The translations under genes and the position numbers were made by a program. Below are positions 15,815 through 18,489 of a stretch of 64,000 nucleotides of DNA, one piece after another. The notes under the pieces are model-generated. The model saw only the letters and a list, made by a program, of their open reading frames with translations, searched no databases and was not told where the DNA came from. Source of the stretch: Myxococcota bacterium (GTDB taxonomy: Bacteria > Myxococcota_A > SURF-8); NCBI GenBank assembly GCA_963674735.2, contig CAXXQS010000001.1:1312001-1376000 (forward strand). The letters are read 5' to 3'. Position 1 is the stretch's first letter. Every line of letters starts with the position of its first letter.

Positions 15815-17248
15815 ATGCCGTCGATCAATCCCATTCCTGATTTCAAGGCTCCCATCGATCGCGATGAAGCTCTTCGAATCGTAAAAAGCTTCGAGCGACA
15901 TATCAACCGCGGGCAGGTGCGTTACCTCAAGGCCGGTCATCTGGATGTGCTGGAAACCGAGCGCATAGGGGTGACCTTCGTCGACCCGATTTCGAAGCGT
16001 CGTATGATCGACTGCTTTTCGTCGGCGGGCAGCTTCAATGTTTCGCGGCACAATCCGCAGATTATGCAGGTCCTGGTGGACGCCTTGGACGAATGGGATA
16101 TGGGAAGCGCCGCGTGTCTGTCCGAAGCCAAACTGGCGTTTGCAAGAAAACTGGTGGATCACGCCCCCGGCGACCTCAACCGCATCCGTTTTGCGGCGGG
16201 GGGCGGAGATGCCGTGGATGGGGCGATCAAGCTGGCCAAAGGCGCAACCAAGCGCACGGAAGTGGTAAGCACGGTCATGGCCTATCATGGTCATACGGGC
16301 TTTGCCCTGTCGGCCAACGGCAAAGAACATTACCGCCACTATTGCGAGCCGCTGATGCCGGGCTTTCGCTTCGTTCCTTTCAACGATCTGGAAGCCATGC
16401 GCCATGCGATTTCCGACCGCACCGCGGCCGTGATCGTCGAACCGGTACAGGGCGAGGCGGGAATCTTTGTCGGAACGACCGACTACCTGCACGGACTGCG
16501 GCAGTTGTGCGACGAAATGGGGGCGCAACTCATTTTTGACGAGATCCAAACCGGTTTCGGGCGTACCGGGCGTCTGTTCGCTTGCGAACATGCGGGCGTG
16601 GTGCCCGATATCATGACCGTAGCCAAGTCGCTGGGCGGTGGACTTTACCCCAACGCGGCGATTTTATATCGCGAGACCGATACCTTGGTCCGTTTTGTGG
16701 ACACCTATCCCGACTTCCACCCGTCTGCGGTGGGCGGGTCTGATCTGGGCTGCAAGGTTTCGCTTGCGGTGCTGGAATACCTGATAGAAAACCGCATGTG
16801 GGAAAACGCCGCGCGTCAGGGCGAGCGTTTGAAAGCGGCGCTGAATAACATTCGGCGGCGTAATCCCAAGATCGTTAAGGACGTGCGCGGTATCGGGCTG
16901 ATGATCGGGATCGATTACCTGCATGAATTCATGGGCCCGATGATGGCGGATGCGCTGGCCCGGCACGGTGTTTTCGCCGCCTATTCGGGCAATGCGCCGC
17001 AGGTCATGCGCTTCATGGCACCCATCACCATCGATGACGCCGAAATGGACCGTCTGATCGACGCCATCGAGGCGGCCGTGGCCGACATGAAAAAGCTGCT
17101 GCCGCTGGCGCTTCCGGCTGCGCGGGTTCCGGTGGTGCTGAAGATGCTCAATAGCGAGAAGGTGCAGACGTCTCTATTCGGCCTGTTGCGCAAGGTGGAA
17201 GACGGGGCCAAGCGAATCGGACTGGGAACGGGAAGGGGGGCGAAATGA
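15815..17248 (+). CDS. Class-III PLP aminotransferase, subunit A (has the PLP lysine)
   Basis: [40 protein letters not shown] 15815 follows aaagga. Confidence 0.93.
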
Positions 17249-18489
17249 GCCGACAAGCGATGACCCTGGAACAGATGAAAACCGAAGCGGCGGCGCTGTT
17301 CGGAACGGCGGCGGTCGGCCAGTTGGAAGCGCGCGGGCGCGACTTTCTGGAAGGGCGGCGCGCCGGATGCGAAATGTGGTCGGCGGAGGAAAAACGCTAT
17401 CTCGATGCGGATACCAACGGCGGTATCTTCAATCTGGGCCGCCGACACCCCGAGTTGGCCGAGGCTTTCAAGGGCGCGGTGGCGCAAACGGATCAGGGTA
17501 ATTTTCCGATGATTTCGCGGGAAAAAGCCGCTTTGGCCGAGGCGTTGAGCCGCTTTGTCCCGGGGTCGCTCGATTGCGCCATGTTCAGCGTCGTGCGCGG
17601 CGAAACGGTCGAAGGAGCCTGTAAAATCGCACGCGGTGTGACGGGGCGTAGCGAATTGATCGCCTTCGATGGTTCCTGGCATGGGGAAACCGGTTTCGCC
17701 ATGACCCTGTCGGACCGGAACGACAAGCGCTTGTACGGCGAAATGATCCCCGATGTGTTTCATCTGCCATTCGACGACTTGGATGCCGCCAAGCAGGCTA
17801 TCGGCAAACACACGGCGGCCGTTATTCTCGAACCGCTGCAAGCCGAAAACCATGCGCGGGCGGTCAGTGCGAAATTCGCGAAGGGCTTGCAACGCCTGTG
17901 TCGCAAGCATGGCGCATTGCTGATCGTCGACGAAACCCAAACCGGTCTGGGGCGTTGCGGCGCGGCATTCGCCTACATGAGTCTGGGGATCGAGCCCGAC
18001 ATGCTGATTACCGGTGAAGCTTTAGGGGGAGGATTGTTCCCCATCGCCGCGACCTTGCTGACTCAAAAAGTCAACGCCTACCTGAACGCTCATCCGCTGA
18101 TTCATCTGTCCACCTTCGGCGGCTCCGACCTGGGCTGCCGGGTGGCGTTGAAAACGTTGGAGATCATGGAACGCGAACGGATATGGGAAAAAGCGGCTCG
18201 CCAGGGATCGCGTTTCAAGCTCGGACTGGGCCATATCGCCGCCGATTATCCCGAGCTGTTCGTTTCGGTGGCGGGGGAGGGCCTGCTGCTCTCGCTTAAA
18301 TGCCGTGACGACGACACCGCCGCCGCATTTGTAAAGGCCTTGTCAACACGCGGTCTGTTGACGTCGCAGGGACGGGGAGACCGCTCTTCGGTCTTGTTCC
18401 GTCCTCCGCTCACCCTCGACGATGCAACGGCCGATGAGATGCTGAAAATCGCCGTTCTTGCCGGAGACGATCTGTCCAACGAGAAATGA
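17245..18489 (+). CDS. Class-III aminotransferase homologue, subunit B (PLP lysine replaced by Glu)
   Basis: EPLQAE, VDETQTGLGRCG, PDMLITGEALGGG, HLSTFGG; ATGA overlap with subunit A. Confidence 0.88.
   Translation: MSRQAMTLEQMKTEAAALFGTAAVGQLEARGRDFLEGRRAGCEMWSAEEKRYLDADTNGGIFNLGRRHPELAEAFKGAVAQTDQGNFPMISREKAALAEALSRFVPGSLDCAMFSVVRGETVEGACKIARGVTGRSELIAFDGSWHGETGFAMTLSDRNDKRLYGEMIPDVFHLPFDDLDAAKQAIGKHTAAVILEPLQAENHARAVSAKFAKGLQRLCRKHGALLIVDETQTGLGRCGAAFAYMSLGIEPDMLITGEALGGGLFPIAATLLTQKVNAYLNAHPLIHLSTFGGSDLGCRVALKTLEIMERERIWEKAARQGSRFKLGLGHIAADYPELFVSVAGEGLLLSLKCRDDDTAAAFVKALSTRGLLTSQGRGDRSSVLFRPPLTLDDATADEMLKIAVLAGDDLSNEK

Follow-up and report, generated by a model that had tools for sequence, protein, structure and literature searches.

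Class III aminotransferases (the omega-transaminases, the gamma-aminobutyrate, ornithine, putrescine and acetylornithine aminotransferases, and BioA) are treated, in textbooks and in biocatalysis alike, as homo-oligomers with two equivalent active sites per dimer. In the alpha-oxoamine synthase subfamily of the fold-type I enzymes that use pyridoxal 5'-phosphate (PLP), serine palmitoyltransferase (SPT) is a heterodimer that pairs the paralogues LCB1 and LCB2, just one of which has the lysine that binds PLP; it is a eukaryotic, membrane-bound enzyme that catalyzes a Claisen condensation. Here we analyze two overlapping genes, A and B, that encode class III aminotransferase paralogues in a 64,000-nucleotide stretch of a Myxococcota genome (contig CAXXQS010000001.1, positions 1,312,001 to 1,376,000; hereafter the window, to whose first letter all coordinates refer). 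Their conserved residue patterns, gene adjacency and natural fusions, together with a model of the complex, make it likely that the two products work as an obligate heteromer that has a single canonical PLP site.

In the literature searched, whose coverage leaves out most subscription journals, there was no heteromeric class III case, and the sole heteromeric aminotransferase was SerTA (Ser4/Ser5) of Serratia sp. ATCC 39006, a heterotetrameric sugar-type (DegT-like) enzyme (PMC11726168). SerTA resembles A/B in being encoded by tandem genes and in having one subunit without the catalytic lysine; each heterodimer forms a single active site, whose activity requires residues from the inactive chain, and the authors of that study described SerTA in 2024 as the first heterooligomeric aminotransferase to be studied (PMC11726168). 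It differs from A/B in its aminotransferase subfamily, in the truncation of Ser4 (B is full length), and in belonging to one secondary-metabolite cluster with a carrier-protein-bound substrate, whereas A/B is a two-gene module found over many phyla.

The structural reference for the pair is the Escherichia coli putrescine aminotransferase YgjG (PatA). Its Schiff base is made through Lys300; Gly150, Thr151 and a threonine of the other subunit (Thr332*) hold the PLP phosphate; Asp271 contacts the pyridine nitrogen; and Glu243, Gln274 and Arg426 are strictly conserved (PMC4244111). YgjG shares with A/B the fold, the predicted dimer geometry with Thr332* in trans, and the Lys300/Asp271/Gln274/Glu243/Arg426 set, which is complete in A. 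Unlike A/B it is homo-oligomeric, with two equivalent sites per dimer, and it lacks a conserved C-terminal extension of ~45 residues that is present in A.

Compared with SPT, A/B belongs to another subfamily with predicted transamination chemistry, its dead pocket is invariant and remodelled (Arg/Glu), and the reciprocal loss of the trans threonine from the live subunit is explicit. An earlier, sequence-only reading of this DNA had drawn the analogy with SPT. The analogy holds as the same principle in a different PLP subfamily, and needs qualifying in one respect: given the SerTA precedent, the arrangement would be new for class III and not for aminotransferases generally. The principle has precedent; what appears to be new, as far as we have searched, is its occurrence in this class of enzymes, the explicit nature of the reciprocal loss, the invariant and remodelled pocket, and the wide distribution.

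Residues of the A and B pockets

The features on which the argument rests are these.

15815-17248, forward strand: gene A, predicted catalytic class III aminotransferase subunit (open reading frame, 477 amino acids, PF00202)
16202-16207, forward strand: Gly130-Gly131 of A (GGC GGA), phosphate cup, aligned to YgjG Gly150-Thr151; backbone amides, no cis hydroxyl
16625-16627, forward strand: Lys271 of A (AAG, in VAKSLGGG), Schiff-base lysine, aligned to YgjG Lys300
16727-16729, forward strand: Ala305 of A (GCG, in HPSAVGG), at the trans-threonine position, aligned to YgjG Thr332*; would face the B pocket
17087-17245, forward strand: C-terminal extension of A, residues ~425-477, conserved in the family and lying beyond the part aligned to YgjG
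17245-17248, forward strand: ATGA, overlap of the B start (ATG, 17245-17247) with the A stop (TGA, 17246-17248)
17245-18489, forward strand: gene B, lysine-less class III aminotransferase paralogue, predicted pseudo-subunit (open reading frame, 414 amino acids, PF00202)
17596-17604, forward strand: Arg118-Gly119-Glu120 of B (CGC GGC GAA), in place of the Gly-Thr-Glu cup, with Arg118-Gly119 on YgjG Gly150-Thr151
18016-18018, forward strand: Glu258 of B (GAA, in TGEALGGG), at the Schiff-base lysine position, aligned to YgjG Lys300
18112-18114, forward strand: Thr290 of B (ACC, in HLSTFGG), aligned to YgjG Thr332*; would reach the PLP phosphate in the A site

Both products match the Aminotran_3 fold (PF00202; 288.3 bits for A and 247.5 bits for B, gathering cut-off 30.5), and they are 35% identical to each other. 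YgjG is the best solved relative of both (3.7e-72 for A, 1.1e-54 for B), and residue equivalences were taken from HMMER alignments to it (PDB 4uox and fusion constructs). By these alignments the catalytic set of A is complete (Lys271, Asp242, Gln245, Glu214 and Arg399), and the hydroxyl that a class III subunit supplies in trans is missing, Ala305 standing at its position. B shows the reverse pattern. It carries the trans hydroxyl (Thr290) and keeps Asp229, Gln232 and Glu201, and it has Glu258 for the lysine, Arg118-Gly119 for Gly-Thr (within VVRGET, residues 116-121, 17590-17607) and Leu384 for Arg426. Judged by these residues, B is a pseudoenzyme, with the fold but without the residues of the enzyme.

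The codons and coordinates that the sequence-only reading gave for these residues and for the ATGA overlap were all correct when checked on the sequence. Its premise, that the trans threonine of a class III dimer binds the PLP phosphate of the partner, agrees with the role of Thr332* in YgjG (PMC4244111).

Conservation, linkage and predicted complex

Relatives of the pair were sampled in two ways. A search with B, in which 8000 candidates were scored, gave 606 proteins at E <= 1e-30, and the best 120 matches had at least 402 bits and 46-57% identity. For the locus set, one genome per species was scanned; 208 loci with relatives were found and the best 80 were fetched, with the window added in all residue counts. 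The second, independent sample comprised 119 metagenome homologues of A, drawn with A as query and 61-73% identical to it, and 119 homologues of B from the B search.

The substitutions in B proved to be fixed. The lysine position is Glu, the Thr290 position is Thr and the cup is Arg-Gly-Glu in 81/81 locus copies and 119/119 metagenome homologues, and an alignment of 42 B homologues shows Glu258, Arg118-Gly119-Glu120 and Thr290-Phe-Gly-Gly to be invariant. Conservation extends to the rest of the B pocket: Arg118, Gly119, Glu120, Glu201, Asp229, Glu258 and Arg386 are present in every copy of both samples, Gln232 in 81/81 and 118/119, and Asn202 in 78/81 and 114/119. The stacking residue is not fixed (W60 C13 Y3 and others, n=81), and the position of YgjG Arg426 is occupied by V, L or I across the family.

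In the A family the Schiff-base lysine is found in 76/76 and 119/119 proteins, and Asp242, Gln245, Glu214 and Arg399 in 76/76 and in 118-119 of 119. The position of YgjG Thr151 in the cup is glycine or alanine (G43/A31 of 76), with glycine in the cup of all 119 metagenome proteins. At the trans-threonine position the locus set has Y21 H17 S9 L7 M5 F4 P4 I3 V2 A1 W1 C1 T1 (n=76) and the metagenome set Y35 S18 H16 V11 T10 and others (n=119). As read from these sequences, the position is unconstrained, being mostly non-hydroxyl, with Ser or Thr in 10/76 and 28/119. The change from Lys to Glu in B (81/81 and 119/119) co-occurs with a loss of constraint on the trans threonine in A, where Thr is retained in 1/76 and 10/119, as the sequence-only reading had anticipated for orthologous pairs.

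The loops that reach into the partner are unequally conserved. The trans loop of B (I-H-L-S-T-F-G-G) is nearly invariant, whereas that of A follows F-H-x-(S/T)-x-x-G-G; likewise, TDQGNFPMIS at B 82-91 is invariant and its A counterpart is looser (D-M-G-S-x-x-L-x-S). Both trans elements of B (loops 286-293 and 82-91) are thus more conserved than those of A, in families whose mean column identities are 58% for B and 64% for A. Such asymmetry is expected if the A site alone is live. Among 138 lysine-bearing class III relatives of B, window A included, the trans-threonine position is T117 S17 A3 gap1, and window A and an A-family representative account for two of the three Ala rows. Since Thr or Ser is near-universal in these relatives, the pattern seen in A/B is rare in the superfamily and goes beyond chance. 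The lysine is absent from 13/151 class III rows, 9 of which belong to the B family.

The two genes travel together. In 75/75 loci with upstream sequence, the gene immediately upstream of B, on its strand, is an A orthologue (51-70% identity to window A); in the remaining 5 of the 80 fetched loci the contig ends before the A position. These loci therefore encode, side by side, a paralogous pair of which one member lacks the PLP lysine. By their record titles they come from about nine phyla (Thermodesulfobacteriota/'Deltaproteobacteria', Myxococcota, Hydrogenedentota, Nitrospirales, Spirochaetota, SAR324, Bacteriovoracaceae, Thermoleophilia and Thermovirgaceae). With the B start taken as the one nearest the A stop, 27/66 assessable pairs have a 4-nucleotide start/stop overlap (ATGA in 20), and the spacing lies between -10 and +4 nucleotides in 50/66; the ATGA overlap in the window points to translational coupling of A and B. 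In a sample of 201 genomes from the window's phylum, a B orthologue occurs in 10, with an A-type match adjacent in 8/10 and B at a contig edge in the other 2. Distribution of the pair is patchy (3/5 genomes of the window's family), and the window's genome holds it once, among six PF00202 matches.

In five natural proteins A and B are fused, in the order A-B in every case and with the A lysine, the B glutamate and the B HLSTFGG motif all retained. One is an in-frame A-linker-B protein with a GTEPGS-repeat linker, from a metagenome-assembled genome of an uncultured Myxococcales bacterium (L060:4072-7155). The others, P0271, P0272, P0273 and P0274, are 873, 851, 854 and 906 amino acids long; P0272 and P0273 are found on 3 contigs each, up to 335 kb in length. 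The linkers are of low complexity and mutually unrelated, which suggests that the fusion arose more than once. An 848-residue open frame in the phylum sample (G078:C36:4547-7023) suggests, by its sequence, a further A-B fusion.

The A/B complex was modelled from a separate alignment for each subunit, with PLP included. The pair scored 0.96 against 0.44 for the best control, a mark reached by 58/80 solved complexes and 2/110 mismatched pairs. At least 96% of contacts recur between runs, and the predicted local distance difference test (pLDDT) score of the partner is at least 93. In the model, B 280-292 (including Thr290) lies against A 128-132 and 270-271, that is, the phosphate cup and the lysine; A 295-307 lies against B 116-120 and 258; and B Asp83 lies against A Gly276. 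The C-terminal extension of A is outside the confident interface and is kept before the linker in all five fusions. Its consensus, MKxLLPxALPAAKIPxxLxLLNNExVQTxxFxxLR, is partly hydrophobic and includes an invariant R459.

Predicted mechanism and competing readings

Together, the residue pattern, the 75/75 adjacency, the five fusions and a complex model that passes its controls support the composite A/B site put forward by the sequence-only reading. We infer from the sequences a physical dependence of A and B, one PLP per pair, a role for the B pocket and a class of substrate. The heteromer would consist of one A/B dimer or of two such dimers joined, each A/B pair having a single canonical PLP site. 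To the live site A would contribute Lys271 for the Schiff base, Asp242 at the pyridine nitrogen, Gln245, Glu214/Arg399 and the backbone-only cup Gly130-Gly131, and B would contribute in trans the hydroxyl of Thr290, directed at the PLP phosphate. The invariant TDQGNFPMIS loop of B probably also enters the substrate pocket. With G or A at the position of YgjG Thr151, the cup of A lacks a side-chain hydroxyl, so that an A homodimer (A2) would be expected to hold the phosphate by backbone amides alone; the invariant Thr290 of B would restore the hydroxyl that this cup lacks. In the B pocket, where Glu258 replaces Lys and Arg118-Gly119 replaces Gly-Thr, no internal aldimine should be possible, and the A residue that points into it would be free to vary. 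Because the B pocket residues are invariant, the pocket does not look merely vestigial, and some role probably persists for the dead site. The likeliest is an Arg118/Glu258 ion-pair network that would fill the cofactor pocket; otherwise, it could be a site for a non-covalently bound ligand.

Several points weigh against an obligate single-site heteromer. The 75 locus A sequences were found through a neighbouring B, an ascertainment bias; the metagenome A sample, drawn with A as query, bears on residues and not on gene context; and the rule used for B starts favors small gaps. The success of the model could be explained by likeness to solved class III homodimers, and it leaves A/B and A/A undistinguished. 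Ser stands at the A trans-threonine position in 9/76 and 18/119 proteins and Thr in 1/76 and 10/119, a constraint that in these sequences is relaxed and not uniformly lost. Going by its residues, A2 would miss the trans hydroxyl only and would keep Lys, Asp, Gln, Glu and Arg, and the trans threonine may not be essential for activity. Finally, a dead site of purely structural function would not readily explain why the B pocket is invariant (Arg118, Glu120, Glu201, Asn202, Asp229, Gln232, Glu258 and Arg386). The claim of the sequence-only reading that neither homodimer is complete is accordingly sound insofar as A lacks the trans hydroxyl and B lacks the lysine, and it is overstated insofar as an A homodimer of reduced activity is possible, as the Ser counts illustrate.

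The invariance of the B pocket is also an argument for a second functional site. A heteromer might form in which this pocket binds pyridoxamine 5'-phosphate (PMP) or PLP, an anionic effector or the distal part of the substrate, or supports lysine-independent chemistry; this overlaps in part with the single-site heteromer and differs only in the role given to the dead site. Its cis residues are invariant, the PLP-ring ligands Asp229 and Gln232 are retained, and the Arg of the phosphate cup offers a possible anion-binding group. Fold-type I enzymes that use PMP without a lysine exist, such as ColD, which has a His. Against such a function, the stacking residue of B varies, the A residue that faces the pocket is unconstrained, and the carboxylate-binding Arg (YgjG Arg426) has become V, L or I. 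Moreover, Asp229 and Gln232 also belong to the DExQTG motif, which is structural and could account for their conservation without any ligand binding. We regard a second functional site as unlikely, if still a serious alternative. A little more doubtful is the specific proposal that A/B is a widespread single-site class within class III whose dead pocket (Arg118, Glu258, Glu201, Asn202 and Arg386) has been rebuilt into a conserved ligand site. In that case the site might act as an allosteric sensor, or it might anchor the distal end of a substrate that is long or anionic, and B would be a specificity or regulatory subunit and not a donor of Thr alone.

It is improbable that A is an ordinary homodimeric aminotransferase and B a separate non-catalytic protein (a regulator, a chaperone or a binding protein) whose only tie to A is co-transcription. 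Every cis catalytic residue is present in A, class III enzymes are normally homo-oligomers, and Ser or Thr still occupies the trans position in some A proteins. In addition, the trans threonine is one of several phosphate ligands in YgjG (PMC4244111). However, this explanation leaves the five fusions unaccounted for, along with the unbroken adjacency and the frequent start/stop overlaps. It also conflicts with the cup of A, which has no cis hydroxyl and would leave the phosphate of A2 on backbone amides alone, and with an invariant trans loop in B beside a relaxed one in A, which is expected only if the B loop serves the A site. The proposal that B reflects pseudogene decay, a mutation confined to one strain or an error of sequencing is refuted by the invariance of the glutamate in homologues of 44-57% identity (81/81 and 119/119), by intact reading frames, and by a B family nearly as conserved as A; the glutamate is neither a strain polymorphism nor a read error, the outcome that would have undone the sequence-only reading.

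If the obligate A/B heteromer is correct, it would be the first heteromeric case in class III and a conserved family of live and dead paralogues across many phyla. It would offer a clean natural example of complementary degeneration after duplication, in which the live subunit has given up precisely the residue of use to the dead site, and precisely the one needed by the live site is retained in the dead subunit. It would also provide a natural one-site-per-dimer scaffold for half-of-sites behavior and subunit communication in PLP enzymes. As to annotation, B-type proteins in their hundreds currently go by the names 'aspartate aminotransferase family protein' or 'acetylornithine/putrescine aminotransferase', yet from their sequences they would appear unable to form an internal aldimine.

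Substrate, neighborhood and class III relatives

In the window a third gene follows the pair, making three co-directional genes.

18497-19699, forward strand: zinc-dependent medium-chain dehydrogenase, third gene of the operon (ADH_N, ADH_zinc_N), starting 7 nucleotides past the B stop

The best NCBIfam match of the dehydrogenase is L-threonine 3-dehydrogenase, at 137.9 bits and below the cut-off of 380, so that its family is not assigned. In the same NCBIfam profile search no equivalog cut-off was reached by A or B. The best match of A is putrescine aminotransferase (313.6 bits, cut-off 612; 255.9 against 658.65 with the other putrescine model; NF008570 / TIGR03372), and B reaches 218.8 bits against the same cut-off of 612. 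Because A falls below the putrescine aminotransferase cut-off, the substrate of YgjG is not transferable to it. A search of the ESM Atlas returned generic class III clusters only.

The most frequent neighbors in the 80 fetched loci are a zinc dehydrogenase (29), a TetR regulator (24), alanine dehydrogenase (20), Amidohydro_2 (10) and Amidohydro_3 (7). The zinc dehydrogenase orthologue follows B in 29/80 loci, alanine dehydrogenase lies upstream in 20, and a short-chain dehydrogenase downstream of the pair appears among the frequent neighbors as an alternative to the zinc dehydrogenase. Beyond the A-B pair no neighbor was constant across the 80 fetched loci, and no specific substrate is assignable. 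In Desulfoluna limicola the pair sits amid the housekeeping genes for YceD, Lgt and a RadA-like ATPase. In amine catabolism, taurine:pyruvate aminotransferase works with alanine dehydrogenase. The dehydrogenase neighbors, together with the keto-acid-recognizing Glu/Arg pair kept by A, suggest that A/B is an omega-amine:keto-acid transaminase whose aldehyde product is reduced by the dehydrogenase, or that the route runs in reverse from alcohol to amine.

A phylogeny of 215 sequences (74 A, 81 B and 60 other class III proteins, the latter being the first 60 representatives of normal length) was built with FastTree and midpoint-rooted. The A family is monophyletic with support 1.0, one A-family representative being nested within it, and the B family is monophyletic with support 0.93. 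A groups with P0127; B groups with P0128 and then with the lysine-less P0160, P0145 and P0149 (support 0.977). Sister paralogy of A and B is not supported: they are not each other's closest relatives in this phylogeny, whose midpoint rooting and choice of outgroups do not fix the order of events. In a mirror-tree comparison over 45 loci, A and B distances correlate with r = 0.75, which we count as co-inheritance at most.

Other lysine-less class III proteins were seen in the same set. The lysine position is Arg in P0145 and P0149, His in P0160 and Asn in P0239, and the trans position is Thr-Phe in P0145, P0149 and P0160 and Thr-Thr in P0239. On these residues, the four proteins may be further pseudo-subunits.

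A scan for promoters and terminators over 15300-20400 gave counts no higher than in shuffled sequence and was uninformative. The operon is flanked upstream by a divergent gene for a FadL/TodX-like outer-membrane protein (13894-15444, reverse strand, 42 bits). After it, also divergent from the operon, comes a 485-residue Cys/Asp-rich, lipoprotein-like open reading frame with no Pfam match (12432-13889, reverse strand). An acetolactate-synthase-type enzyme dependent on thiamine diphosphate is encoded at 10507-12243 on the reverse strand (NF006187, 747 bits, above the cut-off of 509); this gene does not accompany the A-B pair at other loci. On the downstream side lie a convergent small membrane open reading frame and then a clostripain-like secreted protein of 1181 amino acids (20344-23889, forward strand). 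Its N-terminus is rich in Asp and Gly, Cys-rich EGF-like and pre-peptidase (PPC) modules recur in it, and a clostripain domain (Peptidase_C11, 136 bits) is at the C-terminus. Farther along the window, G+C content falls to 0.445-0.479 at 30001-34000 and 42001-44000, against ~0.55 elsewhere, with negative GC skew; by composition, these low-G+C stretches may be acquired DNA.

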